Source: Spartobacteria bacterium
Lineage (GTDB): Bacteria; Verrucomicrobiota; Verrucomicrobiia; Chthoniobacterales; Chthoniobacteraceae
DNA: 28,378 nt
Assembly (NCBI GenBank): GCA_043760145.1
Contig: JAYUPM010000360.1
Span: forward strand, 1 to 28,378
Direction of reading: 5' to 3'
The notes beneath the pieces are model-generated. The model ran no database searches, was not told the DNA's origin, and saw nothing but the letters and a program-made list of their open reading frames with translations. The position numbers were made by a program, and so were the translations under genes. Positions 1 through 24,463 of this stretch are shown here, one piece after another (positions within the stretch are counted from its first letter, which is position 1; every line of letters begins with the position of its first letter).

Positions 1-3000
1 CCGCCGCGGAGTGTGAAAATTCGCGAGGTGCCGACATTCACATCGCCATGAGTGAAGATGGAAATGTTTCCACCCGACTCAGTAAGGACGCCTTGATCCA
101 AAGCCTGGTTGCCACTGATATCGAATCCAACCGTAAGTCCGCCACCCGGGGCGAACAGGCTGATGTTTCCGCCGCTCTTGGTCTTGACCTCGCGCGAGGT
201 GAGCAGGATATCGCCGGGCAATTTCGTCCCGCTAAAGAGGGCATCGATTGCCGCGAATCCTGAATCGTAGTTCCCCGTGATTGCTTTGTCGCGTCCGGCA
301 TCGCGGAGGACGAGGTAAAACATTTCGAGCGCGAGATGGGCCCGATCCGCCGGGGCAAGCTGGTCGAGCTTTGCGGCGGTCCTAACACTGGATTGGCCGG
401 ACTGGAGGTTCAGTTCGGCCAGATATCCGGCAATCTCAGTTGATGTAAGCTGGTCGAGGAAGCTGTCGATATCGAGGCTGCTGTTGGCCAGTCCAAGCGA
501 ACTCCCAATTCCTGCTCCTGCAAAAATACTCGCTCCTTCAAATGGCAGCGCCGGATTGCGGGCATTGCCAAGGCTCAGGATTCCGACGCCGGTGCCATCC
601 GGATTATTCGGCCCGATCCCAAGATCGAGATTGCGCCCTGCAAGCACCTCAAGCACTCCCGGGCCGCTGATCTGGATATCGCCAGCCAATGTGCCACTGC
701 CGGAATTGAGCGCGTTGCCAGGTGCCTGCGCCAGGATCCGCAACGGGGAATTTGGGGCGTAAGCAATGATATCGCGTCCTGCGGAAACCACGGAGAGATC
801 GCTTGCGGAAGTGTTCTGAATATATAGGGCGATATCGCTCAGATCGTTGCCAGCAATGACGCGGGCGGATTTTGCCGAGAAAAGAGTGAGGCCTGAAATG
901 TCGCCATTGAGGGCGTAAAGATGCACAGGATTCGGGTCCCCGGCATGGAGGATGCCCGAAGCGTGAAGCGCTTGCTTGGTTTCGAGGGCCGCCGCCGCGT
1001 CCTGTGTGGAGCCGGTCTCGGCGAAGCGGACGTCAATTGAGGAAAGGAAATTATCCTGGGTCGCCCGGCTCTGGGACGCGCTTACGCCACTGATCGTTTG
1101 ATACGCGAAAGGCGACGCGACACCCGGCAGCGAATTGGGATCCGCATCAGAAAGGTTGATCCCCCCCGAGCCCCACGAGCGCACGAATGTGTTGGGGATA
1201 ATCGAGTTGGTCATGCCGTTGGGGTGCAGGCCATTGATGGAATTGGCGGCGGCGAGATCAACTGTGCCACGGGCACTCGGGAAGAGCGTCAAGCCCCCCA
1301 CAAGGTTGAGGTTCCCCGAGAAGGCAGTGGCCCGGAAGGTCGGTGCCATCAGACTGGCAGCGGTGCGGAACGGAGCCACCTGGCTTTCATTGAGGCGCAG
1401 CCATGGTTGATAAAAGGAGGCGGAAGGAACGCTTCCCGCGACTAGGAGTAACTCTCGCTGGAACCATGCCTGGAGAAGCGGTGTCGGGGTGGATTCCCCG
1501 GCCAATGTGGCGCTGGTCCGGAGTGTCACTGAGCCGCCAAGCGACGAGACGTTGACACTTGAGGTGGGGGCGTATGTGGAGAAATACGATTTATACCAGA
1601 AGGTGTTATTGACGCCGCCCGGGAGCATGAATGGATTCGCCACCGGCCCGAGAAGGAGGTCGCCCTGGGCTGCCACCTCAAAGCTTCCTTTTCCAAGAAA
1701 GAGCGTTGTCGGCAACCACGCATTGGGCGACTCGACCTCATTGGGCACCTTCAAAATTGTGAGGGAAGGCGAACGTGTCGCATTAGTGCGGATCTGATTG
1801 CCCGCGCGCAAAGTCCCCTGCCCGCGTTCGATGTAATAAACACCGCCATCGATATCGTGTCCGGCGCGAACCGTTAGATCGCCTCCCCCAAATTCCACGA
1901 GGTCCGCTGCCCGGGGCGTTCCTTTTGGCATGCGGGCATTAGTTGGGACCATGGCATCCACATTGGCGATGTCGCGTCCGGCGATCAGGCTGACATTGCC
2001 GCCACCGAGGGCCCCAACGCCTTCAAAGAAATTGGAGAAATCGACCCACCAGGTTGTGGATGCCACATCGCCCCAACGCGCCACTCCGAACTGGCCAGTG
2101 GCGGGATCAACATATCCACGCCGATAAAGCCAGTTGGTCGGCATTTCACGCTCGGAGTCGGCAATCAAGTTGCCAAGCGGGTCGCGGGTCAAATGCGCAA
2201 TATTGCCGCCGGCCGCCAGTGCCACATTGCCGCCTGCATAAGTATATTGGGCTGCGTAAAGCGGCGATTGCTGAACAGCGCCAAGGCTCCCCTGTCCGCC
2301 GAGCAGACTCAGGACGGGGAGATCAAAATCACCCGCTGCCTTCACTGTTGTTGGGTTTAGAATCTGCGTCCCCGCCGTGTAAATCGTCGCAAACTGATTC
2401 AGTAAATGAAGGTCCCGCCCGGTCGAAATATCGATGCTCCCGGAACCGGTCCGGATGACCTGAAATCGGTTGCCAATCGCATTCTGGGTGAGGCCGCCGG
2501 TCCCAAATGGATTGGAAATATTGGTGCCGCCGTTTTTGCCGAGAAGCAGCGAACCGGAATTGGCCGTGAGATTCGCAAGCGGTCGGACGCCATGGAAATC
2601 TGCGGATGAAAAGTCAGCCCCAGCAGTAAGACGGTAAGACCATGATTGCGCGTTGGCCTGGAGCAATGGGTTTTGGGCAAGCAACAGCGCGGTGTAAGCA
2701 CTCGAAACAAATCCATCGCTCAACGAATTGAAGAAGACGAGATCCACAGATGCACGCATCGTGAGGATGCCGGGGACATTCTTTGGTCCAAAACGGAACG
2801 TGGAGAAATCCCAATCACTGGTGTTGATGGAAGCGGCGGTGCCGAGTGTCAGGTTGCCGCCGAGGTTGATCAGTTCAGTGCCGGGAACGATGCTTACAAC
2901 AGGGTTCAGAGCTGCATTGCTGGCAAGGAGCCGGGCTGTCATCGCCCCAGTATTGGCGGTGAACGCCGTGCCGTTGGCACTCACGCTGGCCCGCGTCGCC

Positions 3001-6000
3001 GCTGCGATCAATCCGCCTGCGGGTGTCAAAAGTTGGTATCCTTCAATAACAATACTTGAAGCATCCACGATCGTCCCGTTGAGCGGCGCCATGCGCAAGT
3101 CAACTGCTCCTGCAGTCTGTGGGGCGCGCAAATGGAGAGTCCCGGAGAACTGTCCGGCCCCCGCGCTGGTTGCAGTTTTTTGCGCCACAGAAAGATCGAT
3201 GGTCGAGCCGGCCTGCACGTCAAGAATCGCTGCGGCGTTGATAATCCCATTCGTCTGGGAGCCAGCCTCCAACGTGATTGCCCCGCCCTGTCCGGCAGTG
3301 GAAAAGTCCTGGCCGGCTGCCGTCAGGATCGAGCCGGTAGCCAGCGCGATGCTGCCATGCGCATAAAGCCCAATTGAACCACCGGTAACCCCCGAGGCAT
3401 CAAGGATTCCATTCACCGTAATCGATCCGGCATCGGTCGAGAAACGGAGCGTCCTTGCGGCTGAAGTGCCGTCGATAAGCAGATCACCGGTCCGCAGCCG
3501 AACCGCGCGGGCTTCAAAAAAACCACCTGCATCAAGTTTCGCGCCGAGTGCTGCGAGACTGCCTCCGGGGATCGTGGCGACATCAATGGAGAACGCGCCG
3601 CCCCGACCATTGACACCGCCCTGGCCTTGCAGTGAACCATTGAAATTGATCGCCCCCAATGGAGCGGAAATGGAAATGGCACCCGCATTCCCGCCAGCTC
3701 CCTGCGCGGCAACCGACAAGCTGCCAGTCCCGCCGATTGTTACTGAACCGGTATCGGAGATCAGATTGATTGAGCCGCCATCGGTGTAACGTGTGAGATC
3801 ATAAAAGAGTTGGGCTGTGCCACCAACATCGAGGCCGCCATCCACATTCACATCACCTGTTGTTGCATGAAGAGTCAGGGATCCGCTCGGCAACGACACG
3901 GCGCTACTCGCCACAATGGATGCGCCTTCAAACGTGAGGCTGGCTCCCAGCCCTCCCAGATCCGCCGACGCACCGCCTGGAGATCCGACAGTGGGTGCTT
4001 GAATCGTCACGACCCCACCCGCGCTAAACGTATGCACTGCCCCTTTTCCGGCCGCGAATATCGGCGTTGTTGCTGTCAGCGAACCTTGCGCCGCCAACCC
4101 CCCGGTTCCCGACGCAATGATGCTTCGCGATGCGGTGAGCTCAAGGTTTGCGAACTGATCGAGCTTCACAATACTGCTCCCAATCCGAATCGTTTCCGCC
4201 TCAAATTCCAAGGTCCCGCTCGCTGCCGCCACAATCCCTGGAATGGAACCGCCCGGACTGTTGTCGAGCGTGATGACTGGCGCGGAAAACGTCGCCGTTC
4301 CCGTCCCACCCGCGCTGGTATTGAATCCGCGGATTTCAGACGCATGAAGCGCGAGGGTCCCGAGCGAGCTCACAGTGCCATTGCCGTAAACATCGATGGA
4401 TGAATAACTCAGAAGCGAGAGGGTTCCGGCGGATTGGAGGCTTTGAAGGGCAGCACCCGCGAGGACGAGGCCGACGGTGGGTTGCAACGCGCCGGGATCA
4501 TTGAGCTGAAGCGAGATCTGGCCGCTGTTGAGCGAGATCGCCTTGCCATCAAGGGACGCACTCGGATCCAGCGAAGTCGCGTATGTCGAATCGAGGATGA
4601 CTCCCTCCCCTGCAATCGTCACTCCGGTCCCGATCATCATATTGGGCAATGTCGAACTCCCCAAACCAGCCCGGACAATTCGTGCCGATGGATCGCTGCT
4701 CACCAATAGGAGCGTTCCATCGCCACTGCCAGGGACCGAAGCAGTGCCGAGCCGCATTGTTTCACTCGAATTAATCCGGAGCCCCGTTTGATCGATTTGG
4801 GCGCCGTCTGCGAGGGTAAGATTTCGATTGGCCACAAGCACCAGTTCAGGCACTCGCAATGGGGAGCCGGCATTGTCCACGGTCACATTGCTGCTCTTGA
4901 CCTGGATGGTGATTCCGTTGCTGCCAAACTGACGGAGTCCGCCGATCAGCAAACTTTCGGCTCCGAACCGATTAAGATCGCCAGCTTTCAGGACGAGCTC
5001 ACCCGGGGCTCCGCCACTGCCCGACCCGGAAATCCGGATATCGAGGGCACTGGAAATGTCGACCAGCCCGCCGCGACTGAGCTGTGGGGCATCCGCAGCG
5101 ACCCGGCCCTTGAGGATCAACGATTGAGTCGCGGTGAGGACCAGATGTCCTGCATCGCGGGGAGCGCGTGGCACTGCGAGGCCAAGCTTCCTCGGCGCTT
5201 CGGTCAGGACGATGTTCCCTGAGAATCCGTCATATTGGGCGCGCTGCCGGACAACCGATCCGGACGCAATTTCGAAAATGTTTCCAAGTGATTGCTCCGT
5301 CTGGCTTTGCCCGGAGCGAGATCCGGTGACGATGCTTGAGCCATCGGGCAACGCATGGGTTCCGTTGGGGATGCCCGTTTTTGGAGTGACGAGGAACGCG
5401 CCGGGCAGCAGGGCATAACGCGCCGGCAAAAGCGTATACATGCCGGCAGGCAATCCATTGCTTGCACCGAGATAAACCTTGTCGCCCGCGCGAAGCGCAC
5501 TGTTCACGTAGCCCGGATCGCCGCCGAGATTCCCTGTCCTCGAAGCGGTGGTGAACGGGGCGTATGGAGCGTAATCCGCCGAGTAATTGGGAATGACAGC
5601 AAAGGTGGTTGTCGATGCGAGGATGTCGTTGCTGCCGCCGGTGCCGGGAACCCAGCGATAGGCGAAAATATCGCCGCCGCCACGGATATCGATTAAGGAG
5701 CCGCCGGCATCGGTGATGTTGGCAGCGGAAAGGCGGATCGCTTTGCCTGGCGCGCCTGTGGCCGTGATGTCGGTCCCACTTGGATCGATCCATGAGATGC
5801 CATTGAAATTGAGGCCGAATGGGATGAGCGCGCCTTGACCTGTCTGCGGATCGATACCGGAAACAGAGGTGTAGCTCCCTTTGCCCAAAGTGAGTTGGGT
5901 GGTTGCCGCCACGGCCTGGCCGGTGATGAGATTAATCGGGGGAGTCCCGACGCCATCCCAACCGAGATGAATCGTCCCGAGCGGCGCGCGCACGGTTCCA

Positions 6001-9000
6001 CGTTGCTCAATGATCGAGCCGTGAATGGTGAGCAGCCCGCCAACAGAGAGCGGCAATGGACGTGAGCCCGAACCGATGATTGTGACTGAGCCCGGTTGCG
6101 ATAGACCTCCCACTGTGTAATCAGATGCCGCAATCGCAAATGCCACCGCAGTTGGCGGATAAACCTGGCCCGCAATCATCACGATCTTGCCTGCGACATT
6201 CAATGTCCCATCCCCCCGGATATCCCCCTTGTGCGCAATGAATTTCGCCAACCCAATTCCTTGCAACGACAAGTTCCCGATATCGATCAAATCAGCGGTC
6301 ACAGTCAGACTCCCCGCCCCATAAGTCGGTGAGAAATTGAATGGGACTGAGCCGGATTGGAATGGGTTGCGCGATTCTTCCGGGGCGAATGGCGGACGGA
6401 ATGGTGTGCCCAAGACTACATGCGGCGCGGTTAATCGGACTGCGCTATCGCTGAAGATCACACCCCCACTGCCAACGTTAAGGCTTCCCGCTGTCGCCAG
6501 GTTGATCAGTCCAGAAAAGTCGACGCTTCCCATCAGCGAGACCGCATCAAACCCGCCCCGGGCAAAAGTGGAAATGGAGATATGGCCTTGGGCAAGGGCG
6601 TTCCCAGTGCCATCAATGATCGGCTTGCCGACGCGCTTGCCGGGGGCGAGGAAATTCTGCGGAACGTTCAAGCCGTCCTGCGTCACGAAGAGCGTCACGC
6701 TGAGCGGAGTCTGCGGGGTCGAATCGCCGAGCGCCACGAAGCGACCCGAGGAGAGGGTGATCGAACCGCCGAGCGCGCTGGGTCCGCCTGCGCGTCCGAT
6801 GAGTGTGGCATCGCTAAAGAGCGCCTGACCACCGGCTAAACTGATCGAGCCGGCGCTGGTTTCCACCAAGGTCGATGTCACCAGCGATCCAAGGAATGAT
6901 CCCTCCATCGGACGTGCTGGAAGCATTCCAAGCATCCCGTATCCGAGGGCGAGATCGAGGTTCGTCTGGGTCCCAGAAACGTTGAGCCGCGACCCGGCCG
7001 CCGCAACGATATTGCCACTCACATTGATGCTCCCACCGCGAAGCGCGAGCCCGACGTCATTGCCACGCGGATCCGCAAGCATCACGGTCTTTCCTTTCGC
7101 AGAGAGCACGGAATTGGGTCCGATAAACACCGTTGCCAGGGCTTTCAACTGCGCCTGTGCGATCTCGGGAAATACGACGTTGGAATCGCGGCCGCCGCCA
7201 ATCGTGATTGCGCCGCCGGGGGCAAAAATGGAGCCGAGGACCGTCGCGGTTTCGCCTGTCAGCGTCACACTCCCGAGCGCGTCGGTGGTGATCCGGGTGC
7301 CTCGTCCAAGCACCAAATCTCCACGGATAATTGGGAGCTTGGTGAAACTGTCGCGGACACCGAGCGCGTTGAAAGTCAGACTGACCGGTGAGCGATAGCC
7401 CTCAGGTTTATCGACGGGAATCAGGGCGATATTGGTTCCGTTAGAATCGGGCACTGCAACGCTGCCACGGACCTGCGGGGCGAGCTCGATCCCGGCCGAG
7501 ATCAGGATTGCTGGAAGCGATTCGCCTGCGCCGTTCAAAGCACCGAGCCCCTTTAAAGTGAAGCTGGCAAACCCGCCTTGGTTAAAGAAATCCGTTGGAA
7601 GCAAAAGGGTTCCGGGAATGCGAGTCAGTCCACCGACTTGAATACGCGGCGCAAGAATACTGAGGGAACCACCCTTCGCTCCTGAATATCCGAGAAGATT
7701 GGCGCCAAGGTTGAGGTGTCCACCGATAACGGCCGCGAGAACGGGATCGCGGGCAACCGTCGCGGCCTGTCCCGCATTGATCACGATCCGGCCGCCGTTG
7801 CCATAGGTCCGTTTCCCAGTGGGAGTAAGAGCCACCCCGCCCGAGACATCAATCGTGCTTCCGGAAATCAGATTCACATTGTAACTGGAAATGGAGACTG
7901 AGCCGCCACCATTGATGAATGGCTGCTCCCCGGGCACAGGCGTCCCAGCCCGGTCATCCACAATCAATCCCGCCGTGTTCAATTTCGCATCCGCGCCCAA
8001 CGTGAAATGTCCGCGACGCTTATTGGGCTCCGGCGTTTGGGCAGCGTCGGGACTGGCAAGTAAATCAGCGACCGTTGTGGGCGAAATATTATGCGCTGTC
8101 AGTGTCAGGTTGCCGCCGGCGATTGTGATGCTCCCCTCGATATCGATATTGGATCCATCAAGGGTAAGCGACCCGCCAACTGTCCCATTCAACGACACTC
8201 CTTTCGACACCACGATCCCTCCATCCGCATTGCTGATCGTCAGATTGCCAAACCCGCCGGGCCCCACCAATTCGGGGGCGAGAAACACATGACTGCGCCG
8301 CTCAGGCCGCAACGCGAATGGGTTGCCCGTCGGATCGAGCCGGAATGCAACTGGCGCAGGCGCTTGGAGCCCGTTCTGGAATATGACTTTGGGCGGCGTT
8401 GGCGAAAATGTTTGGAACCGCGGACCGGTCGGGGATTGCGCCTGAAAAGTCAGCGACAAAGTGCTCAGCCCGGGTCCAACCACGCGCTGGCGCGGACCTG
8501 TCACCGTATGGCCGACCAATGATCCATCAAGCGCCACGGCAGGCGCATTGATGGTGAGGGATCCTCCGTTTCCACCATGCGTGTAACCCGGTTCAAAGTG
8601 CTCGCCATCAAGTGCCAGCGGGTTTTTGAAGGTCTCGCTGAAACTGTATTTCGGATGGAACTCGGTGAAATTCCCCGTGTAAATCCCGTCGTAGATTTGG
8701 TCTGGAGTCGCTTGGGTAATATCGAGAAGACGCGCCCCTTGGATCAGCCGGGTGGTTTTTACAAGCCCCCCAAGATATTCAACGGTCCCGCCGGAGACAT
8801 CGACCTTGGAGCCGCTTTGCAACACGACGGAGCCGCCCGCATTAAGTTTCACGTTGCCGCCCGCAATCGTCAGTTCGCCAACGCTGCGCTCGATGAGCCC
8901 GACATATCCGGCCGCGTTTGCGAGCGGCGTTCCCACCCAATTGGCCCCGTTGAATATGCCACTTTCACGCGCATCGATTTGGATTGTCGCGCCACGGAAG

Positions 9001-10775
9001 ATGCCATCGCGCTGAAGCGGGGCATCGGCAAACTCAGAGCCGCGAAGCTCAAGCGAGAGGATATTGGAAGTCAGCAACGCACTGACACCTGTGGATCCGG
9101 CGGCATTAATCAGGGCCCCGGAGTCGAGGTAAATTTGCCCCGCCGAATAGATGAAGGGCGACACCGGCGTTGTTGGCGTTGCAGCGGAAAATTTCCATGT
9201 CCCGGCGTTCAAGGTCATGGCAGCACCCGGGGCCAGCAGCGTGGAATCCGAGGCAAGATGAATGACGAGCCCATTGATGTTGACTTGGGAAGGAAGGGCC
9301 AGGGTCGTTCCAACCACTGTGGCTGCATTTGAAAACTCAGGCAGAATCTGCGTGGCGCTACCCGGCCCCAAGGTCACGGTCCCGGTGGACTTGAAAAGAA
9401 ACGGGGCGTGCCCTTTTGCGGTGCCACTGGCGCTGATTGGGTAAGGAACCGCATCGAAACTTGCCAACAGATCAACCCGGCCATTGAGCGAGACCGAGGT
9501 GCTGCTATCGACGGCGCCGAGTTGTTTTACATTCTTGCCAGCCATCGTGAGGTTGGCACGCGGAGTGAGAATCAGACCGGAATTGGTCGCCGCTCCCGCG
9601 TAAACCGGCCCGACGCCTTCCGCAACGGCCCCGACAAAAACATCGAGGCCACGCAGGGACGGATCGCTGCTTGCGTGAGCGCCGAAGCCGATTTGCAGCC
9701 CGGCGGCCAGAATCGTCTGACCATCGGGGGTGGAAATTGTCCCGGCGTTATGCACGTTGGCGCCGAGCAGCATCACGCGCCCACCAACCTTCGCATCGTT
9801 GGATGGACTTTTGATAACCGCGCCGGCCTGCACCTTCACATCGCCATTGGTCCCATCGGGCGTCAACGGATCTTCCGGCGTGAATGCGGGAGTCCCATTG
9901 GCGCCAGCAAGGATTGGCAACGATGAAAAAAGGAACTGCGCATCCGGGTTGTTGAGCAATCCGCGCGAAACAAGATTCTCATTGATGGGCAACGAAGAGG
10001 CGACAAAGGAGTGGAGATTCACCTGACTCGAACCGCCGAAGATGATCCCATTCTGGTTGATCAAATAAACTGAACCGGGCCCTGTGATGGATCCAAGGAT
10101 CTGGCTCGGAATCCCGGAAGGATCGAGCACAAGGTTGAATGCGATCCAACTATTGCTGCCGTCTTTCTGTGTGCCGCGAGCCTGGTTGAAATTGACGGTC
10201 GTCTCTTTCCCGACGTTGAAGGTTTTCCATGTCAACACCGCTTGGGACTGGGTCTGGGTAATCCCGACTGTGGTCTTGCCTTTTGAGACCGTTGATTTCG
10301 GAAGAAGCGCTCCGCGCCAGAGGCTCGCATTTTCTCCGGCCGTTGGTGCCGATAGATTCACAGGCACGCCAGGTGCCACTTGCAGCCCGCCCACCACCAG
10401 GCCGTTCGGAACATTTGGCAGCCTCACCCCGGCGTGGTTGGGGTCCATCCCGAGATTATTCGGGCCTCTCCGGGCAATCTCGCGGGCCGATTTTTGCATG
10501 GCTCGCACCGATTGAACCGCTTGCGTCGTCCGTGCCAGGGCATCCTTTGCATTCATCGCCGCCTGGGCCGCCGCTGCGGATGTGGGGCCGCCCGATGCAT
10601 TGCTGCCGGGCTTGGTCCCGACCACGCTCCCGCCGCGCAAAATATCGCCAGCCTCAGCGGGTAAACTGATCGTGAACATGGCGCACATTCCGAGTGCCAC
10701 GGAAATGGCACTAGTGAGTGCCGTCGATGGCGTTGCTCCAATCCGATTCAAACGGGATGGATGCGGAGTTCTCAT
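1..10775 (-). CDS. Giant filamentous haemagglutinin-family TpsA exoprotein (PdtA-like, probable C-terminal DUF3739), 3' partial, >3590 aa
   Basis: Translated by hand. ATG at 10775 overlaps the upstream stop (ATGA). The protein begins MRTPHPSRLNRIG...SLPAEA/GDILRGG (signal peptide), followed by TPS-domain motifs ITQTQSQAVLTWKTFNVG, SQILGSITGPGSVYLINQNGIIFGG. Mid-gene reads GLPAGMYTLLPARYALLPGAFLV. The window edge reads GDVNVGTSRIFTLRGG in the same frame. The track has no minus-strand ORF terminating in this frame, consistent with an uninterrupted ORF leaving the window. Confidence 0.93.
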   Translation of the reverse strand, partial: MRTPHPSRLNRIGATPSTALTSAISVALGMCAMFTISLPAEAGDILRGGSVVGTKPGSNASGGPTSAAAAQAAMNAKDALARTTQAVQSVRAMQKSAREIARRGPNNLGMDPNHAGVRLPNVPNGLVVGGLQVAPGVPVNLSAPTAGENASLWRGALLPKSTVSKGKTTVGITQTQSQAVLTWKTFNVGKETTVNFNQARGTQKDGSNSWIAFNLVLDPSGIPSQILGSITGPGSVYLINQNGIIFGGSSQVNLHSFVASSLPINENLVSRGLLNNPDAQFLFSSLPILAGANGTPAFTPEDPLTPDGTNGDVKVQAGAVIKSPSNDAKVGGRVMLLGANVHNAGTISTPDGQTILAAGLQIGFGAHASSDPSLRGLDVFVGAVAEGVGPVYAGAATNSGLILTPRANLTMAGKNVKQLGAVDSSTSVSLNGRVDLLASFDAVPYPISASGTAKGHAPFLFKSTGTVTLGPGSATQILPEFSNAATVVGTTLALPSQVNINGLVIHLASDSTLLAPGAAMTLNAGTWKFSAATPTTPVSPFIYSAGQIYLDSGALINAAGSTGVSALLTSNILSLELRGSEFADAPLQRDGIFRGATIQIDARESGIFNGANWVGTPLANAAGYVGLIERSVGELTIAGGNVKLNAGGSVVLQSGSKVDVSGGTVEYLGGLVKTTRLIQGARLLDITQATPDQIYDGIYTGNFTEFHPKYSFSETFKNPLALDGEHFEPGYTHGGNGGSLTINAPAVALDGSLVGHTVTGPRQRVVGPGLSTLSLTFQAQSPTGPRFQTFSPTPPKVIFQNGLQAPAPVAFRLDPTGNPFALRPERRSHVFLAPELVGPGGFGNLTISNADGGIVVSKGVSLNGTVGGSLTLDGSNIDIEGSITIAGGNLTLTAHNISPTTVADLLASPDAAQTPEPNKRRGHFTLGADAKLNTAGLIVDDRAGTPVPGEQPFINGGGSVSISSYNVNLISGSTIDVSGGVALTPTGKRTYGNGGRIVINAGQAATVARDPVLAAVIGGHLNLGANLLGYSGAKGGSLSILAPRIQVGGLTRIPGTLLLPTDFFNQGGFASFTLKGLGALNGAGESLPAILISAGIELAPQVRGSVAVPDSNGTNIALIPVDKPEGYRSPVSLTFNALGVRDSFTKLPIIRGDLVLGRGTRITTDALGSVTLTGETATVLGSIFAPGGAITIGGGRDSNVVFPEIAQAQLKALATVFIGPNSVLSAKGKTVMLADPRGNDVGLALRGGSINVSGNIVAAAGSRLNVSGTQTNLDLALGYGMLGMLPARPMEGSFLGSLVTSTLVETSAGSISLAGGQALFSDATLIGRAGGPSALGGSITLSSGRFVALGDSTPQTPLSVTLFVTQDGLNVPQNFLAPGKRVGKPIIDGTGNALAQGHISISTFARGGFDAVSLMGSVDFSGLINLATAGSLNVGSGGVIFSDSAVRLTAPHVVLGTPFRPPFAPEESRNPFQSGSVPFNFSPTYGAGSLTVTADLIDIGNLSLQGIGLAKFIAHKGDIRGDGTLNVAGKIVMIAGQVYPPTAVAFAIAASDYTVGGLSQPGSVTIIGSGSRPLPLSVGGLLTIHGSIIEQRGTVRAPLGTIHLGWDGVGTPPINLITGQAVAATTQLTLGKGSYTSVSGIDPQTGQGALIPFGLNFNGISWIDPSGTDITATGAPGKAIRLSAANITDAGGSLIDIRGGGDIFAYRWVPGTGGSNDILASTTTFAVIPNYSADYAPYAPFTTASRTGNLGGDPGYVNSALRAGDKVYLGASNGLPAGMYTLLPARYALLPGAFLVTPKTGIPNGTHALPDGSSIVTGSRSGQSQTEQSLGNIFEIASGSVVRQRAQYDGFSGNIVLTEAPRKLGLAVPRAPRDAGHLVLTATQSLILKGRVAADAPQLSRGGLVDISSALDIRISGSGSGGAPGELVLKAGDLNRFGAESLLIGGLRQFGSNGITIQVKSSNVTVDNAGSPLRVPELVLVANRNLTLADGAQIDQTGLRINSSETMRLGTASVPGSGDGTLLLVSSDPSARIVRAGLGSSTLPNMMIGTGVTIAGEGVILDSTYATSLDPSASLDGKAISLNSGQISLQLNDPGALQPTVGLVLAGAALQSLQSAGTLSLLSYSSIDVYGNGTVSSLGTLALHASEIRGFNTSAGGTGTATFSAPVITLDNSPGGSIPGIVAAASGTLEFEAETIRIGSSIVKLDQFANLELTASRSIIASGTGGLAAQGSLTATTPIFAAGKGAVHTFSAGGVVTIQAPTVGSPGGASADLGGLGASLTFEGASIVASSAVSLPSGSLTLHATTGDVNVDGGLDVGGTAQLFYDLTRYTDGGSINLISDTGSVTIGGTGSLSVAAQGAGGNAGAISISAPLGAINFNGSLQGQGGVNGRGGAFSIDVATIPGGSLAALGAKLDAGGFFEARAVRLRTGDLLIDGTSAARTLRFSTDAGSITVNGILDASGVTGGSIGLYAHGSIALATGSILTAAGQDFSTAGQGGAITLEAGSQTNGIINAAAILDVQAGSTIDLSVAQKTATSAGAGQFSGTLHLRAPQTAGAVDLRMAPLNGTIVDASSIVIEGYQLLTPAGGLIAAATRASVSANGTAFTANTGAMTARLLASNAALNPVVSIVPGTELINLGGNLTLGTAASINTSDWDFSTFRFGPKNVPGILTMRASVDLVFFNSLSDGFVSSAYTALLLAQNPLLQANAQSWSYRLTAGADFSSADFHGVRPLANLTANSGSLLLGKNGGTNISNPFGTGGLTQNAIGNRFQVIRTGSGSIDISTGRDLHLLNQFATIYTAGTQILNPTTVKAAGDFDLPVLSLLGGQGSLGAVQQSPLYAAQYTYAGGNVALAAGGNIAHLTRDPLGNLIADSEREMPTNWLYRRGYVDPATGQFGVARWGDVASTTWWVDFSNFFEGVGALGGGNVSLIAGRDIANVDAMVPTNARMPKGTPRAADLVEFGGGDLTVRAGHDIDGGVYYIERGQGTLRAGNQIRTNATRSPSLTILKVPNEVESPNAWLPTTLFLGKGSFEVAAQGDLLLGPVANPFMLPGGVNNTFWYKSYFSTYAPTSSVNVSSLGGSVTLRTSATLAGESTPTPLLQAWFQRELLLVAGSVPSASFYQPWLRLNESQVAPFRTAASLMAPTFRATAFSGNLNLVGGLTLFPSARGTVDLAAANSINGLHPNGMTNSIIPNTFVRSWGSGGINLSDADPNSLPGVASPFAYQTISGVSASQSRATQDNFLSSIDVRFAETGSTQDAAAALETKQALHASGILHAGDPNPVHLYALNGDISGLTLFSAKSARVIAGNDLSDIALYIQNTSASDLSVVSAGRDIIAYAPNSPLRILAQAPGNALNSGSGTLAGDIQISGPGVLEVLAGRNLDLGIGPNNPDGTGVGILSLGNARNPALPFEGASIFAGAGIGSSLGLANSSLDIDSFLDQLTSTEIAGYLAELNLQSGQSSVRTAAKLDQLAPADRAHLALEMFYLVLRDAGRDKAITGNYDSGFAAIDALFSGTKLPGDILLTSREVKTKSGGNISLFAPGGGLTVGFDISGNQALDQGVLTESGGNISIFTHGDVNVGTSRIFTLRG

Positions 10776-13323: not shown

Positions 13324-13349
13324 GAATTGAAAAATTGTGCGGGCTGGTT

Positions 13350-14144: not shown

Positions 14145-14151
14145 GGCGTAT

Positions 14152-14550
14152 TTATTTCGGCTTGGTTGCCAGGCCGACTTGCGTGATCCCGATCCGCCCA
14201 AGGACATCGAGCACATCCATCACTCCCTGGTATTGGGTCTGGCTGTCGCCCCGCACCACCACCGGAAATTCCGGGGTCTTGCTTTTGACTTGGGCGAGCT
14301 TCTGTTCCAGCTCCTCAAGGCTCACGGGAATCGTGTTGAGGAACACGTTGCCTTCGTTATTGAGCGTGATCGCCTGGGTCTTCGGGCCCTCGCTTTTTGT
14401 GGTCGGCCCCCCCGCCGTCGGCAGGTTCACTTTGACGCTCTGGACCCCGGCTGTCGTCATGATGATGAAGATCAGCAGGAGGACCAAATAGAGGTCCACC
14501 ATCGGCGTGACATTGATGTCATCATACGATTTGTCGGAGTCAGCTTGCAT
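14152..14550 (-). CDS. exbD: Biopolymer transport protein ExbD/TolR
   Basis: DINVTPMVDLYLVLLLIFII with the conserved TM Asp, and C-terminal VVVRGDSQTQYQGVMDVLD. Confidence 0.95.
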   Translation of the reverse strand: MQADSDKSYDDINVTPMVDLYLVLLLIFIIMTTAGVQSVKVNLPTAGGPTTKSEGPKTQAITLNNEGNVFLNTIPVSLEELEQKLAQVKSKTPEFPVVVRGDSQTQYQGVMDVLDVLGRIGITQVGLATKPK

Positions 14551-14568
14551 GAGTCAAATGTGGGCGCG

Positions 14569-16455
14569 CTAATCGTTGCTGGATGGAAACGCCTCCGCGA
14601 TTTTCGCAATGAACTCGTCGATGAAAATTTGCATGTCGCTGATCGCATCCTTGATCCGCGAACTGAGGTAGCTGTAGGCAAACAACGCCGGGATCGCGAC
14701 CGCCAGGCCCGCCACCGTGGCCAGCAACGCCCCCGCAATGCCGGGCGCAATCGAGTTGACTTCCACCGCCCCGGTTTTCGCAATCACGGCGAACGTGATC
14801 ATGACCCCGATCACCGTCCCGAGCAGCCCGAGATAAGGGCCGCCGGCAATACCGATCGTTAAAAAGACCAGGTGCGAATTGAGCCGTTGGACCTCACGCA
14901 ATAGGCCGCCATCCAGTGTCGCCCGGATCGCTTGCATCGAGCGCCCCGAGAGCCCATTGAACTCATTCTCGGCGTTCTCTATCCGGTGCTGAATTTCCGA
15001 GGAGCCGATCTTGTAAATATGATAAAGCGGCGAGTGGCGCATGAGCTTTTGCGCCTTGCTGTTGGCTTTCCCGCCCATGCTCTTGACGTTCTGCTCGTCC
15101 CCGTGATCAAGCACGCTGAGGTCCGCTGCCAAATGATCCCACTCCTTCAGGAACGCGTTGGTGGCCCTCTTGATTTTGTTGAGGTAAACAAACTTCATTC
15201 CCGCCACCACCCACCCCACAACCGCCAGTATCCCGCACAGCACAATAACCACCCATCCGTCGATCGTCAGCGATTTGGAGATGTCCGAGATCAGCGTAAA
15301 ATGCTTTGCCAATTCGCCTTCCCCGCCGTGGCCCGATTCCTCGTCGTTGCCCACCGCCAGAAGCTTTAGCGCCTTGTCACCAGTCCCCTGGCTGAGCGCG
15401 GCGAGTTTCAAATAACCGAGTGGGCGCGCAATCTTCGAAATCTCAAGTTCATCGAGTTCGCCGGAAAAGCCAGCGGCAGTCGGATCAGCGGGAGTGGCTG
15501 CGGCAACCGTTTCGCCACCAAGCAGCGCGATGCTTTTAAATGCGGGCAGGGCGGCGTGCAATGTGCCGTAAGTTTCGCCATCCAATAAAAGTGTCACCGC
15601 CTGGCCGGATACCACCACCGAAAGATGCCGCCATGTCCCCGCTGTCAAAGGCGTTCCGGCTGCCGTCCGTTGCGTGCCTGCTGCATTCGTGATCTCCAAA
15701 AATGGCACCCCTCCATCTACTCCGATCCGAAAACCGGCGCCTTCCTCGCGTCTGCTGAAAAGGATGGCGTTGGGGGAAAGAGTCGCCGGCTTGATCCACG
15801 CGCTCCATGTCAATGCAGCGCCCTCGTTCCAGTTGAGCGATGCGGATTCCGGGAGCTTCAACGCGCTTTTTCCGTCGAGGCGCAAACCGTTCCCGATCAA
15901 TGTTCCTTCAGCAGAACGTCCCTTGTCCTGGGCGTTATTGGCGTTGCTTGTGGAATCGAGCGGCGCCGCGTTGGACTCCGCGAAATGATAAACCAGGAGC
16001 GTGTCCGCATCGTATGTGGCCTTCGGATCCCCTGCCCGCGCCACTTCCCCAGCATTCCCGTAATAAAGCCAGAAACTCGTCTCCGCCCCCGGCTTGATAT
16101 CGCCGACTTTGACCCAGACAAATGCCTCGTTCAGAAGCGCATCGAATTTTTCGAGGTGAAATGGGAGGAGCGTCTTTTCATCGGCAGCGACAAAGCGAAG
16201 GTCGCTCCCGTCTTCCTTCGCGGAAGTGAATGTGAAATTCCCCTGGTGAAGCCGCACAAGGACAACGGCGCTTCCAACAGCGTCTGTCAGTGGAACACCA
16301 GTCGCCCCGGTGTTGACCGTGATCTTTTTGCGCACGCTCCATTCCGCGTTCCACCATGCCTGGGCCGGCGTGGAAAACATCCAGCACGCCACGACACAAA
16401 ACCAGATGCCGCGTGCGAACCGAGAGAGAGCCTTGGGATTACCGTAAGTTGCCAT
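14569..16455 (-). CDS. exbB: DUF2341 + LamG-like domain fused to MotA/TolQ/ExbB proton channel
   Basis: Signal ending AQA/WWNAEWSVRKKIT. DUF2341 motifs DGSDLRF and FWLYYGN. LamG-like TWSAWIKP...WRHLSVV. ExbB TM motifs GPYLGLLGTVIGVMITF and IAGALLATVAGLAVAIPA. Confidence 0.92.
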   Translation of the reverse strand: MATYGNPKALSRFARGIWFCVVACWMFSTPAQAWWNAEWSVRKKITVNTGATGVPLTDAVGSAVVLVRLHQGNFTFTSAKEDGSDLRFVAADEKTLLPFHLEKFDALLNEAFVWVKVGDIKPGAETSFWLYYGNAGEVARAGDPKATYDADTLLVYHFAESNAAPLDSTSNANNAQDKGRSAEGTLIGNGLRLDGKSALKLPESASLNWNEGAALTWSAWIKPATLSPNAILFSRREEGAGFRIGVDGGVPFLEITNAAGTQRTAAGTPLTAGTWRHLSVVVSGQAVTLLLDGETYGTLHAALPAFKSIALLGGETVAAATPADPTAAGFSGELDELEISKIARPLGYLKLAALSQGTGDKALKLLAVGNDEESGHGGEGELAKHFTLISDISKSLTIDGWVVIVLCGILAVVGWVVAGMKFVYLNKIKRATNAFLKEWDHLAADLSVLDHGDEQNVKSMGGKANSKAQKLMRHSPLYHIYKIGSSEIQHRIENAENEFNGLSGRSMQAIRATLDGGLLREVQRLNSHLVFLTIGIAGGPYLGLLGTVIGVMITFAVIAKTGAVEVNSIAPGIAGALLATVAGLAVAIPALFAYSYLSSRIKDAISDMQIFIDEFIAKIAEAFPSSND

Positions 16456-16465
16456 GAGTTATTCT

Positions 16466-18292
16466 TTAAAAATCAGCGGAGACACGGAAGGTGAACAGGA
16501 GGTCGCCCGCCTGGCTGTTTGCCTGCGAGATGGCCGGGATCGCCAGGTCGAGTGAGCCATTGAAGTGATTCGACAACTCGATCCGGCTCCCGATTCCGAA
16601 GCTCGCGAGCTGGAAGTGCGATGCCTGTTGCGGCAACGGCTCGTGGATCGAGAGCGCTCCCACGTCCCCAAATGCGTAGATCCGCCATTCCTGGTTTTTC
16701 CCCCATGCCCCAAACGCCCCCGTGCCCCACCCGAGCAGCGCCGGGCTGCGCAATTCGGCTGTCCCAAAAATCGCGTTGTCACCGAGCACCTCCGCCTCCA
16801 GATATCCACGGGCGCTTCCGAGTCCACCCCCTGCAAACTGTTCGCTGTTGACCAATGGCTGATCCGCGATCTGCCCATGCACCTTGAGATAAGCCTGGAA
16901 CCCGCCCGGCAACTCATGCGTATGGGATAGATCGCTCCGTATATAGATGAAATTGGAGTCGGCCTTGAACCGGTTATTTTCAAACTCATTGGATCGATTG
17001 CCGACCCCGCGGATGCCGAGCGTGACGCCCGCATTGAATTCGGTGACGGAGTTTTTGGGGGGCGCTGAAGTGGTGGCCGCTGCCGCATCACCTTGCGCAG
17101 CCGCGTCCTTCGACTTCCCCGGGTGGCTCCATGTCGCCGAATAATTCGCGCTGATCGGGTAGTATGTGATCGGCGTGAGCAGCGTCGTTTCACCAATCTC
17201 AATCGCCTGGTTGAAGTGCTTGTAATCAAACCCCGCATTGAATGACTGATAAAAATTCGGCCCCGATGGCAGCGTGATGATTGCGCGCCCCCCATAAACT
17301 TCACCGCGCCCAGCCACCGCAATGCTTCCAAGCGTGCTGACATTGGAATCCTGCTTGGTCGCCTGAAGCATTAGGCTCAGCCAATCGACGTTGGGAACCC
17401 GCGCAATGTAATAGCCGGAGAACACTTTGACTTCCGACCAATCCTCTGGCGAAAGCTGGAAGTTGCCGCCGATGGAATGCCCCGCTTGCCACAGGTTATT
17501 GTAACTGAGCGCCCCGGAAAGCCGCAGCGGTGTGGTATCCGCGCTGTAACGGTTATTAAGTTCAATGCTCCCGTGCAGCGGGAATTTGTCTTTGACCGTT
17601 AAATCGATGTCCACCAGCCCGGGCTCCGCGCCCGCCACCATCGACGGGGTCACCTGCCGGTCCGGCCAAAGGTTGAGCGCCACGATGTCCCGGGTGACAT
17701 CGTTGAAATTCACTGCCCGCCCTTCCGCCAATGATTGCGCTTTCGCCTTGATCACACTCGGCAAAAAATAACGCGCCCCTTTCACCCGGACCTGCCCCAC
17801 TTTCCCTTCGCTCACCTCAAGGATCACAATGCCCCGCCGCCCTGTCTGCGCGGGAATTTGGACCGAGGCACCTTGAAAACCCTTTGCCTGATACGCCTTT
17901 TGCAATGCGGCCCGAGCGCCCTCCACATCATCCGCCGTCCGGCCCGGTCCGAGGAACGGATAAACGGCCTCCTCCACTTCCATCTGCGGCAACTCGTGCG
18001 CGCCGATCACCCGGTAGCGCCGGATATAAAGTGGTTTCAACGTCGGCTTTTCCATCTCCCCTCGTGGCAGCGACGTCTCGTCGCTTTTGGTTTCCGAGGT
18101 TGGCTCCGGCTTTCTGTCACTCATTTCACCAAGAGATCCAATCAACGGAAGACCCAGCCACAAGAGGGCTGCTGGAGCCAATCCACGACCGGGCCTGACC
18201 CGACCGGTTTGGTTGAAGATGGATTGGAAGATACGCACGGAGAGGTCGGAGCAAGGTTGTTGTAGCTGTCTCCAACCCTCGCGCTCTCTCAT
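16466..18292 (-). CDS. ShlB/FhaC/HecB-family TpsB (Omp85) transporter, PdtB-like
   Basis: POTRA motifs (IRRYRVIG, LQKAYQAKGF, ILEVSEGKVGQVRVKG), loop-6 motif GGLGSARGY (VRGY/F variant), C-terminal VSADF. The real start may be GTG at 18238 (MRIFQ...AALLWLGLPLIGSLG), because ATG 18292 overlaps the Pho-box-like site. Confidence 0.92.
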   Translation of the reverse strand: MREREGWRQLQQPCSDLSVRIFQSIFNQTGRVRPGRGLAPAALLWLGLPLIGSLGEMSDRKPEPTSETKSDETSLPRGEMEKPTLKPLYIRRYRVIGAHELPQMEVEEAVYPFLGPGRTADDVEGARAALQKAYQAKGFQGASVQIPAQTGRRGIVILEVSEGKVGQVRVKGARYFLPSVIKAKAQSLAEGRAVNFNDVTRDIVALNLWPDRQVTPSMVAGAEPGLVDIDLTVKDKFPLHGSIELNNRYSADTTPLRLSGALSYNNLWQAGHSIGGNFQLSPEDWSEVKVFSGYYIARVPNVDWLSLMLQATKQDSNVSTLGSIAVAGRGEVYGGRAIITLPSGPNFYQSFNAGFDYKHFNQAIEIGETTLLTPITYYPISANYSATWSHPGKSKDAAAQGDAAAATTSAPPKNSVTEFNAGVTLGIRGVGNRSNEFENNRFKADSNFIYIRSDLSHTHELPGGFQAYLKVHGQIADQPLVNSEQFAGGGLGSARGYLEAEVLGDNAIFGTAELRSPALLGWGTGAFGAWGKNQEWRIYAFGDVGALSIHEPLPQQASHFQLASFGIGSRIELSNHFNGSLDLAIPAISQANSQAGDLLFTFRVSADF

Positions 18293-18319
18293 GACATCGG
18301 AATGTCAGGCAGGTTACAT
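18291..18319 (-). promoter_or_regulatory. Pho-box-like operator: three direct repeats at 11-bp spacing
   Basis: The minus strand reads ATGTAAC-ctgc-CTGACAT-tccg-ATGTCAT. Cores GTAAC/GACAT/GTCAT lie exactly 11 bp apart, matching the PhoB half-site CTGTCA(T/C) architecture, directly upstream of the operon. Confidence 0.65.
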
Positions 18320-18360
18320 TCCTGCGACTATTCCCCGGGAGACCGTCACGGTTTGTAGTT

Positions 18361-18696: not shown

Positions 18697-19101
18697 TTAA
18701 TGAGCCTTACCACGGCGCATTGGTTTCGAGTTGGCTTTGAGCCATGCAGCGTAACCGGCCTCTGTCATTTCGCCCGCGGCAAGCGCCAGGGTTTTCATCA
18801 CCGCGTCCGCCTGACTCGCCTTGAAGTGGTGGCTATTTCGTTCCAAAAAACCCGCCCCCATCATGAATCCTGTGCGTTTGTTGCCATCGATAAACGGATG
18901 ATTCTTCACAATCCCCGCTGCGTAACTTGCCGCCAGCTTGGCCATGGACGGTTTGCCATATGCGAATAGATTGCGGGGTTTGGCGAGGGCAGAATCGAGA
19001 AGATGCTCATCGCGGACCCCGCCAAGTCCGCCGAATTGCGAGATCATCATTTCGTGCAACGCCAGGCATTCTTCCCGGGTCAGCCAGTAAGGCTGTTTCA
19101 T
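18697..19101 (-). CDS. doc: Fic/Doc family (death-on-curing) toxin
   Basis: GVRDEHLLDSALAKP and active-site HPFIDGNKRTG. Overlaps the antitoxin stop (ATGA). Confidence 0.95.
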   Translation of the reverse strand: MKQPYWLTREECLALHEMMISQFGGLGGVRDEHLLDSALAKPRNLFAYGKPSMAKLAASYAAGIVKNHPFIDGNKRTGFMMGAGFLERNSHHFKASQADAVMKTLALAAGEMTEAGYAAWLKANSKPMRRGKAH

Positions 19102-19325
19102 TTTGCCAGTTCGCGGAGCGTGTCCCGGTAGCGCTGGGCCAGGTCACCAAACGTCGCCATCGTCTTCGCAAAATCCTGATTGGTTGCGCTCACATGAAAA
19201 CCGTCAGGAGTTTCGGTAAGCAGCACCGAGTCGCCTTCCTCCGCCTTGAGATGGGCAAGTGCCTCTTTTGGAAGGACGACCCCGAGCGAATTGCCAACCT
19301 TGCGCAGTTTAAGTTCCAGGTTCAT
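19098..19325 (-). CDS. AbrB/MazE/SpoVT-family antitoxin
   Basis: LKLRKVGNSLGVVLPKEALAHLKAEEGDSVLL is the AbrB-fold signature. 75 aa, directly upstream of doc. Confidence 0.93.
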   Translation of the reverse strand: MNLELKLRKVGNSLGVVLPKEALAHLKAEEGDSVLLTETPDGFHVSATNQDFAKTMATFGDLAQRYRDTLRELAK

Positions 19326-19741: not shown

Positions 19742-19780
19742 AAAACAAAAAACCGCAGCCACCTTTCGATGGCTGCGGTT
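19742..19780 (-). terminator. Rho-independent terminator of the 387-aa/1102-aa unit
   Basis: 11-bp stem AACCGCAGCCA/TGGCTGCGGTT, extendable around a GAAA tetraloop, followed by TTTTGTTTTA on the minus strand. Lies 20 nt after the stop at 19801. Confidence 0.9.
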
Positions 19781-23109: not shown

Positions 23110-23129
23110 AGATGTCGTAGGTCGGGGTC

Positions 23130-24293
23130 TTAGTAGTTCGGGGTAATCAGCGCCCCGTCACCGGCGCGGGAGACAGTCATGGTGCTTAGGAGGATCGGTG
23201 AATCAACTGTCCGGATCTGAGTGGCCAGAGCGTCTGCAACGGACTTTTTGGCAGCAGCTAGGGATGGCAAATACATCAAGTGTTCATAACACCAGAAGGT
23301 GTATTGACCGTTCTGGACCGCCGCGAGTGAGTATGTCGTCCCGCCGTATGTCAGTTCCTTGGCACCACCAGCAATCGCGTTGTCAGCATCGTTGGTTCCC
23401 ATGTAGCTGATGTAATATCCGTTGATCCCGGCAAGCGTGGTTTTCTTCAAGTTATCCCGAAGGGTGTTTCCGCTTGTCTCGCCGCTCTGCCCAACGCCAA
23501 CCGGAATTCCGGTTGTTGTCGTGCCCGCTGGATAGGGCGCATGCCCCGTTACAGTCGAGCCGGATGTCGTGGGCTTATACTGAAGAACTGTCGAGAATAC
23601 TCCGATGCCCGATTCGGCAAAGGTCGTCAGGCGTGTGCCGGAATCCGGGTCGCGCCCTGTCGCGAACACGGAAATGGTCTGGTCTGCAGGATTGTTAGTA
23701 AAAACTGCGAGTGGGATCTGGCCGGTTGACCACAGCGCCTGCGCCAATTGCTGGGTGATGTTGTTCAATCCCGCTGGAGCCCCGTTGCTTGCGACAAACT
23801 TAAACCCAATCACACCCACTACCGTGTCTGTCATGACCGGGGAGGCGAACGCGGTCGAAGCTTGATAGTTATCGGTCATCGCCACTTCAGCCACCAACGC
23901 CACTGTGCCGGTTGCCGCAATCGAAGTTCCGCCGGTAAGGGTAGTGCCGCTCGCTGTCACAGCGCTTGCTGCGGTGAATTCAGCATCGGCGATTGTAAGG
24001 ACCGTTGCACTCTGGGACACACTCTTGGTCCCGCCAACTGCCCCTGACCATGATGTCTTAAATGTTACTGTGTCTGCCCCGATTGTTCCGCGGATTATCG
24101 CAAATGAACTGGAGCCTAGATCAGTTCCTTTATAAACCGCTGTCGGGCTTGTTAGAATCTTACTGATCGACAGATTGGTTTGTGCCCGGAATGCCGTTGA
24201 TCCTGTGATGACGACATCAACATTGGCGGCAAACGCCGAACCGCAAAGAGCAAGGGTGATCGAGCCCGCGAGGATTGTAAAATAAGGTTTCAT
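23130..24293 (-). CDS. Secreted PstS/DING-like (periplasmic binding protein type II fold) protein, 387 aa
   Basis: Signal ...GSAFA/ANVDVVITGSTAFR. Motifs line up in order with PstS phosphate-site segments: GSTAF (GATFP), WSGAVGG (GSSGG), AMTD (GASD), GRDPDSGTR (RADGSGT). No lipobox. Confidence 0.7.
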   Translation of the reverse strand: MKPYFTILAGSITLALCGSAFAANVDVVITGSTAFRAQTNLSISKILTSPTAVYKGTDLGSSSFAIIRGTIGADTVTFKTSWSGAVGGTKSVSQSATVLTIADAEFTAASAVTASGTTLTGGTSIAATGTVALVAEVAMTDNYQASTAFASPVMTDTVVGVIGFKFVASNGAPAGLNNITQQLAQALWSTGQIPLAVFTNNPADQTISVFATGRDPDSGTRLTTFAESGIGVFSTVLQYKPTTSGSTVTGHAPYPAGTTTTGIPVGVGQSGETSGNTLRDNLKKTTLAGINGYYISYMGTNDADNAIAGGAKELTYGGTTYSLAAVQNGQYTFWCYEHLMYLPSLAAAKKSVADALATQIRTVDSPILLSTMTVSRAGDGALITPNY

Positions 24294-24445
24294 TGTATTA
24301 ATGGTGGTGTCTGCCTGTTAGTTGTTAGAAGTAACGAGTGTGTGTTGGTCTGAGTTTGGGTGGTCCTGTAAGGTTGTTTGCGCCGCCAGTTTCCATTACT
24401 TTCCACGAGTCTCAACCAGAGTATTGTTACGATTACCCGCCGAGT

Positions 24446-24463
24446 ATGGCGAACATGTGACAG
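24446..24463 (-). promoter_or_regulatory. Second Pho-box-like site upstream of the PstS-like gene
   Basis: The minus strand reads CTGTCAC-atgt-TCGCCAT (18 bp, 7-4-7, first half-site perfect), about 150 nt upstream of ATG 24293. It is followed by an AC-rich leader lacking a Shine-Dalgarno sequence. Confidence 0.45.

Follow-up and report, generated by a model that had tools for sequence, protein, structure and literature searches.

In the textbook view, two-partner secretion requires no energy source, and the role of TonB motors is to serve plug-and-barrel receptors. A cluster that brings the two together is already known from Pseudomonas aeruginosa PAO1, in which PA0688-PA0699 comprise lapA, lapB, pdtA, phdA, pdtB, exbB2, exbD2, tonB4, PA0696, PA0697, PA0698, and PA0699 and belong to the PhoB/sigma-VreI regulon (PMC7035377, PMC9769906). 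PdtA, PA0696, and PA0698 are among the P. aeruginosa proteins most enriched under phosphate limitation, and the genes of the DING-like PstS relatives, lapA and lapB, adjoin pdtA (PMC9769906). The pdtB-exbB2-exbD2-tonB4-PA0696-PA0697/pdtA set is thus known as such, with its motor and porin uncharacterized (PMC7035377, PMC9769906). In Pseudomonas fluorescens SBW25, psp, which encodes a phosphate-limitation-induced, phosphate-binding DING protein of about 40 kDa related to PstS, lies directly upstream of pflu2428, a hemagglutinin-like gene with a product of about 4000 residues, and extracellular phosphate scavenging was proposed for Psp by its authors (PMC2225411). Haemophilus HxuABC offers a further parallel, by description only, as a two-partner pair encoded together with TonB-energized uptake of a scarce nutrient, in that case heme. 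Here, we describe a locus on contig JAYUPM010000360.1 of a Spartobacteria bacterium that represents the verrucomicrobial form of a Pdt-type phosphate-starvation envelope cassette, together with a divergent PstS-like gene that accompanies this cassette across Verrucomicrobiota.

The window analyzed is the entire 28,378-base contig of a sediment-metagenome genome (2.7 Mb in 606 contigs, 85% complete), the closest relatives of which, judged from long-porin matches (best 80 of at least 600), are Chthoniobacterales ("Spartobacteria"). A sequencing-run look-up found the window in four sediment-metagenome DNA runs and in no RNA runs. Reading 5′ to 3′ on the minus strand, the PstS-like gene is followed by a Calx-beta gene, a terminator, a MazE-Doc pair, and a tight cassette operon in the order tpsB, DUF2341-LamG-ExbB, exbD, tonB, Porin_5, coiled-coil gene, and tpsA (Table 1). 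A first-pass annotation made from the letters of the window had proposed an operon with these seven genes, and each was located on the minus strand. It had also placed the PstS-like gene upstream on the same strand, which is correct, while leaving out the Calx-beta gene, the terminator, and the MazE-Doc pair that lie between the two units. As that annotation had stated, the window holds no plug-and-barrel TonB-dependent receptor: Pfam/NCBIfam-type profile searches of its 13 main open reading frames (ORFs) returned no match to the Plug or receptor families. This separates the locus from HxuABC, in which HxuC is a plug-and-barrel receptor relying on the housekeeping TonB, whereas here a porin is encoded with a private motor.

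The resemblance to the P. aeruginosa Pdt cluster, already pointed out in the first-pass annotation, is borne out by synteny and by the published descriptions (PMC7035377, PMC9769906), homology being assigned through annotation, synteny, and proteobacterial loci rather than through PAO1 sequences. The two loci share genes for TpsA, TpsB, ExbB, ExbD, TonB, a porin, and a coiled-coil protein, and their arrangement agrees from tpsB onward. Both also have a PstS-related gene near tpsA and a toxin-antitoxin-type gene inside (phdA there, MazE-Doc here), and induction by phosphate limitation there is paralleled by predicted Pho sites here. They differ in that pdtA precedes pdtB in P. aeruginosa, whereas tpsA comes last here and in all of the 80 loci examined. 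The DING-like LapA/LapB of P. aeruginosa are exported by the adjacent Hxc type II system, whereas the PstS-fold family here looks unrelated to them and has no type II system nearby. Control there involves VreA/VreI/VreR plus PhoB, whereas only Pho boxes were seen here. Finally, PpiC-type peptidyl-prolyl isomerase (PPIase) and YbjN genes, the counterparts of PA0699 and PA0698, are absent from the window, which has no room for them since the first 4 bases of tpsA overlap the end of the coiled-coil gene.

To place the locus among its relatives, we searched species-representative genomes with a pattern derived from an alignment of 10 porin sequences and retained the best 80 of at least 600 stretches. 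These 80 loci came from Verrucomicrobiota of several orders and from Bradyrhizobium, Rhodopseudomonas palustris BisB18, Zavarzinia, and other Alphaproteobacteria. The order tpsB-exbB-exbD-(tonB)-porin-coiled coil-(PPIase/YbjN)-tpsA was found in every one of them wherever the contig allows. The coiled-coil gene lies directly 3′ of the porin gene throughout (80/80, 27-55% identity), and the DUF2341-type ExbB fusion recurs in R. palustris. Identity between the window and the alphaproteobacterial copies reaches 47-50% for the porin, 62-67% for ExbD, and 43-51% for TpsB. The seven core genes are one invariant unit across two phyla, and the suggestion of a cross-phylum module is upheld. The placement of tpsA at the end, which the first-pass annotation had read as a rearrangement, is instead the general order of the cassette, which we take to be ancestral, and P. 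aeruginosa is the exception. Proteobacterial loci add the PpiC-type PPIase and YbjN genes that match PA0699 and PA0698, as do some other verrucomicrobial loci; because these genes are absent here and present in those loci, they can be regarded as accessory. Upstream genes of the FecR and STN/TonB_C types in the proteobacterial loci recall VreR and VreA. In Bradyrhizobium valentinum (L074:432-4149 and 14535-18181), FecR/DUF4880 anti-sigma genes, STN-TonB_C fusions, and an SLT transglycosylase gene were noted in or beside the operon.

We then considered the 387-residue product of the PstS-like gene. No Pfam PBP_like_2 or NCBIfam PstS match was obtained at E<0.01, phmmer found no sequence match in the PDB, and a profile comparison of its family with one or two PstS sequences (hhalign) gave an E value of only about 0.03. 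Since these sequence-only methods failed, a fold search was needed for identification. An AlphaFold model built with 36 family members as the alignment reached a predicted local distance difference test (pLDDT) score of 91.3. In Foldseek, its 26 best PDB matches were all PstS or DING proteins, with 4lat at the top (E=1e-12, template modeling [TM] score 0.80 on the target). Residues T30 G31 S32, S83 G84, D141, R214, and S218 G219 T220 are invariant or nearly so across the 36 family members, and hhalign sets the RDPDSGT segment onto the R-x-x-x-SGT motif of PstS. The conserved residues correspond to the anion-binding motifs of PstS (N-terminal G-S-T, Ser loop, Asp, and R-x-x-x-S-G-T). By reference to Escherichia coli PstS, we take D141 to be the Asp that favors phosphate over sulfate. 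The model thus confirms a PstS fold with an intact-looking anion site, from which binding is predicted, and the PstS/DING-like identity given in the first-pass annotation stands even though sequence models are silent. The same gene had been called secreted and nonlipidated. A Sec-type signal peptide and the lack of any conserved Cys in the family agree with this, with "secreted" holding only as far as export past the inner membrane. The mature N terminus is ANVDVVITGST, not DINGGG, and the neighbors of the gene are the Calx-beta gene and the two-partner cassette, not pstCAB. A word-indexed search returned 274 relatives, none with a Pfam domain, and those with names all belonged to Verrucomicrobiota.

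The distribution of this family follows that of the cassette. Among 251 evenly sampled genomes of the phylum, 8 genomes from 8 genera had full-length Porin_5 scoring above 580 bits, which was used to call the cassette. The PstS-fold family was present in the same 8 genomes (8/8) and in none of the remaining 243 (0/243). It was also found in 24 of 25 further distinct verrucomicrobial cassette genomes reached through the porin. According to tblastn maps, the PstS-like gene either directly precedes tpsB, in some loci separated from it by a Calx-type gene, or adjoins the 3′ end of tpsA, following it or facing it in convergent orientation; a few copies (L006, L107, and L108) are isolated. Two genomes hold two full cassette copies, each with its own PstS-like gene (G081, L020-L023; G253, L029 and L106). 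In two loci, the distance between the cassette's PstS-like gene and a canonical pst operon is within 2-4 kb, the pst genes being pstSCAB-phoU in L007:1224-6485 and pstS in L015 (G243:C42:217786-221506). Because the family is spread patchily over seven families of bacteria and occurs in varying arrangements, a functional link with the cassette is indicated. This coupling stops at the phylum: the PstS-fold family was detected in none of 12 alphaproteobacterial cassette genomes (0/12), and a search across the same 12 genomes found no adjacent PBP_like_2 gene in the Bradyrhizobium or Rhodopseudomonas cassettes. In two Alphaproteobacteria (Zavarzinia and another), ORFs of about 470 and 838 residues with weak PBP_like_2 matches lie 6-9 kb 5′ of tpsB (G280:C120:20826-21545 and G288:C20:226156-228980) and could represent a third kind of PstS-like partner. 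The co-occurrence on which the first-pass annotation had made its proposal depend was therefore found within Verrucomicrobiota and not in Alphaproteobacteria. A PstS-type partner is recurrent across cassettes, yet neither universal nor orthologous.

Phosphate control was examined with a Pho-box model obtained by aligning eight pst-operon promoters taken from this genome and from seven others of the same class. All eight carry (C/T)GT(A/C)AC units with 11-bp spacing, 47-77 nucleotides (nt) before the start codon. A 33-nt matrix spanning three units gave nothing convincing in the window and proved unsuitable, because the spacing and linker bases of distant genomes are built into it. It was replaced by an 11-nt unit matrix scored as dimers, with each site ranked among the 5.4 million positions of the genome. 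The best dimers across the genome formed a noisy set, many of them lying inside genes, and served solely for ranking and to assess the pst and ppk promoters. The site upstream of the PstS-like gene is the top dimer of the window on either strand and ranks 22nd in the genome, or 34th when the genome's own pst promoter is omitted from the model. For the array upstream of tpsB, the dimer score is just 8.7, while its four-unit score ranks 55th. Across 47 nonredundant verrucomicrobial loci, 27 have a dimer scoring at least 12 within 430 nt 5′ of tpsB, against a background of 0.026 per window; the consensus of the verrucomicrobial tpsB-upstream sites is aTTGTGACgaAAttGTAACA. No such dimer precedes tpsB in 14 alphaproteobacterial loci (0/14). 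Of 30 PstS-like genes, 7 reach the same score upstream, and many of the others are second genes of their units. Another dimer of this genome (C479:4098-4119) lies 37 nt 5′ of a gene for 711 residues, which we take to be ppk, encoding polyphosphate kinase, from inspection of its N terminus by eye. Predicted Pho control is well supported for the lineage, strongly supported for the PstS-like unit of this genome, and weakly supported for its tpsB. Of the Pho-box-like repeats reported at both units by the first-pass annotation, those of the PstS-like gene are convincing, while those of tpsB are weak here and strong in the orthologous loci.

The porin provides a further connection to phosphate. In the AlphaFold model, a signal peptide and a disordered Pro/Ala/Thr linker precede three periplasmic helices, which form a stalk, and a 16-strand barrel without a plug. 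This predicted architecture differs from that of a TonB-dependent transporter, in which a plug with its TonB box sits inside a 22-strand barrel. Its closest structures in the PDB are those of the stalked porin OmpM1, MOMP, OprB, and DcaP. OmpM1 of Veillonella and DcaP of Acinetobacter likewise have a 16-strand barrel after a periplasmic helical stalk. They differ in that OmpM1 bears an S-layer homology (SLH) domain for peptidoglycan attachment, and neither is linked to a motor; identity with the two is about 11-14%. A segment considered as a TonB box, EELDLTQ, was rejected because it is not conserved, and the first 87 residues of the porin as a whole are not conserved among 32 homologues. We consider the protein to be, by its model, an ordinary 16-strand stalked porin, with nothing in this analysis that marks it as the target of the motor. 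On another contig of the same genome (C276:569-2891; L002, L003, and L024), a short Porin_5-type porin of 490 residues is encoded directly 5′ of canonical pstS, and a Pho box (C276:470-502) precedes the pair. Among 40 other genomes of the phylum, the short Porin_5 gene lies within 2 kb of pstS in 29, within 10 kb in 3, and is unlinked in 8. This pairing, seen here and in 29/40 genomes, suggests that the Porin_5 relatives are phosphate porins of Verrucomicrobiota. No relevant description of PF16930 or of a linkage between Porin_5 and pst genes was found in the literature searched.

An alternative candidate for the target of the motor emerged from TpsA. The contig breaks off with about 175 C-terminal residues of TpsA still to come; the end of the partial protein matches, in orthologues, the beginning of their conserved DUF3739 C-terminal region. 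We aligned tpsA 3′ ends from other loci (L109, L111-L116, and L119). All nine orthologous C termini (9/9) consist of DUF3739, an Ala/Ser-rich linker, the motif P-S-(I/L)-I-T-V-E-V-L-G-Y-G-G-G, and then acidic residues. We liken this terminal strand, ITVEVLGYGGG, to TonB boxes, presumably as a tethered beta-strand of the kind bound by TonB C-terminal domains. Judged from these alignments, it would be at least as good a target for the motor as the porin. The motor itself has Tol-Pal features: its proteins score best against TolQ and TolR, and the genes downstream include one for a TonB/TolA-like protein and one for a periplasmic coiled-coil protein, the latter in the manner of CpoB in Tol-Pal. 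It departs from Tol-Pal in several respects: the window encodes neither TolB nor Pal, the TolQ/TolR matches fall well short of the equivalog cut-offs, and a porin together with TpsB takes the place of the outer-membrane partner.

Taken together, the phosphate link of the cassette is well supported. We favor the reading that the locus encodes a Pho-regulated cell-surface phosphorus-acquisition device composed of a porin conduit, a PstS-fold partner, and a motor acting on a tethered periplasmic strand, most likely that of TpsA, and we give this reading a probability of roughly 0.55. Phosphate or a small phosphorus compound would cross the outer membrane through the 16-strand stalked porin, for which the PstS-fold protein would be the high-affinity binding partner, in the periplasm or at the surface. 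The TpsA fiber would contact or hold a phosphorus source outside the cell, while the TolQR-like ExbB-ExbD-TonB motor would put force on a periplasmic strand, preferably the conserved C-terminal strand of TpsA, with the porin stalk as second candidate. Several points weigh against this proposal. The Pho site of tpsB is degenerate in this genome. Alphaproteobacterial cassettes have neither binding protein nor Pho box, with FecR/STN signaling genes in their place, so the core machine does not depend on a phosphate-binding partner. This contig lacks the C-terminal region of TpsA, and the porin N terminus showed no conserved TonB box across the 32 homologues. The stalk was rejected as a motor-specific feature, given that the first-helix motif LV..LV.KGILT is also present in the short, pst-linked, motor-less porins. 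In addition, related genomes in the co-occurrence counts are not independent samples.

Among the alternatives, the one that survives best, although we judge it rather unlikely, is that the motor, the stalked porin, and the coiled-coil protein power, anchor, or retract the TpsA fiber for adhesion, competition, or virulence, with phosphate starvation as a cue and the PstS-like gene merely co-regulated. The invariance of the core and the confinement of the PstS-like partner to one phylum would fit such a fiber machine, as would the conserved tethered strand resembling a TonB box at the end of TpsA and the frequency of PPIase chaperones in the cassette; PdtA also contributes to virulence in Caenorhabditis elegans (PMC7035377). 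However, co-regulation leaves unexplained why the binding family is missing from all 243 cassette-free genomes and why its gene repeatedly flanks tpsB or tpsA in different arrangements, and the closest paralogues of the porin are pst-operon porins.

It is less probable still, although this was the main model of the first-pass annotation, that the PstS-fold protein acts as a released "phosphophore," which would capture phosphate and dock on TpsA or the porin so that the TonB motor opens the porin and takes up the phosphate or the loaded protein, as a phosphate equivalent of hemophore- or HxuABC-type heme uptake. The PstS fold with its intact site and strict linkage to the cassette is in keeping with this idea, and its size of about 375-400 residues with insertions resembles that of secreted DING proteins; the Pseudomonas Psp/DING protein is secreted, binds phosphate, and is encoded beside a tpsA homologue (PMC2225411). 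However, no type II secretion genes were seen beside the verrucomicrobial loci inspected, and the protein therefore has no evident export route. A plain 16-strand barrel without plug or conserved TonB box is too narrow for a folded 40-kDa protein, and alphaproteobacterial cassettes work without such a protein. A broader version, which we hold to be equally doubtful, is a proton-driven phosphate harvester in which the TonB-like motor would grip a tethered strand (the TpsA C terminus or the porin stalk) and couple the fiber and the stalked anion porin to the PstS-fold phosphophore, giving active outer-membrane phosphate uptake without a plug-and-barrel receptor. Lastly, export and assembly of PstS-like subunits by motor and porin, decorating the TpsA fiber, would recall the PstS-containing surface appendages reported in P. 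aeruginosa (PMC2242829), and suit a PstS-like gene that stands first in its own unit behind a Pho box, but this is very improbable, as there is no known precedent for protein export via a 16-strand porin and, with no terminator before the Calx-beta gene, the PstS-like gene does not form a stand-alone "major subunit" transcript.

Table 1. Features of the 28,378-base window
Feature	Position	Strand	Evidence or remark
tpsA, giant two-partner-secretion exoprotein	3..10775	minus	TPS domain E=1e-14; 3591 residues within window
Coiled-coil protein, periplasmic, signal peptide, 203 residues, PA0697 counterpart	10772..11383	minus	No Pfam/NCBIfam match
Long-form Porin_5	11386..13329	minus	Pfam PF16930, E=1e-200
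TonB-like protein	13350..14216	minus	TonB_2 C-terminal domain, E=1e-5, above cut-off
ExbD/TolR	14152..14550	minus	PF02472 E=6e-28; top NCBIfam model TolR
ExbB/TolQ channel with periplasmic DUF2341+LamG head	14569..16455	minus	PF10102, PF13385, PF01618; top NCBIfam model TolQ
TpsB, Omp85-type exporter	16466..18292	minus	POTRA_2 + ShlB
Degenerate Pho-box-like array 5′ of tpsB	18288..18331	minus	ATGTAAC, CTGACAT, ATGTCAT, 11-bp spacing
Doc toxin	18697..19101	minus	Fic/DOC Pfam match, TIGR01550
MazE/AbrB-type antitoxin	19098..19325	minus	ORF overlaps doc by 4 bases
Strong intrinsic terminator, end of PstS-like/Calx-beta unit	19751..19780	minus	13-bp stem, 8 G-C pairs, then T run
Calx-beta/Big_7 exported protein, 1102 residues	19801..23109	minus	Pfam; begins 20 nt after PstS-like stop codon
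Divergent PstS-fold anion-binding protein (predicted), 387 residues, signal peptide, no lipobox	23130..24293	minus	AlphaFold + Foldseek
Extra half-site TCGTAAC	24426..24432		Beside Pho box of PstS-like gene
Pho box CTGTCAC-N4-TCGCCAT	24443..24464	minus	Best dimer of window; 149 nt 5′ of PstS-like ATG

Some features of the window call for further comment. The actual start of TpsB may be the GTG at 18238, because orthologue alignments begin near residue 88. A strong terminator directly after the PstS-like gene was considered and rejected: the Calx-beta gene begins just 20 nt further on, and the strong terminator lies 3′ of the latter. The predicted transcription unit would thus have the two genes co-transcribed. 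Residues 1-270 of the Calx-beta product form a domain without any family match, which tblastn also detects in many loci as a stand-alone exported protein of about 260 residues encoded beside PstS-like genes (e.g., L007:9206-9847, L009:8118-9931, L010:2047-2718, and L022). ESM Atlas look-ups of this domain and of the coiled-coil protein returned unnamed clusters only. At the position of the MazE-Doc pair, the relative L004 has a PIN-type pair, and the Phd-like gene phdA lies between pdtA and pdtB in P. aeruginosa. An ORF of 128 residues (24290-24676), faintly similar to Peptidase_M78, shares sequence with the promoter region of the PstS-like gene, Pho box included, and is probably a remnant or not a gene.

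Present in hundreds of species, the cassette described here unites a two-partner pair with a TonB-type motor of its own and a porin. Beyond the cassette itself, the analysis adds a previously unmodeled PstS-fold family that is strictly coupled to it within the phylum, a candidate Pho-box consensus for Verrucomicrobiota that is present at both units, and the pst linkage of Porin_5 paralogues as a functional hint for Porin_5. The PstS-fold protein, the Pho boxes, and the pst-linked porin paralogues of the verrucomicrobial variant are three independent pointers to phosphorus acquisition, and they make the question posed by exbB2-tonB4-PA0696 of P. aeruginosa into testable hypotheses.

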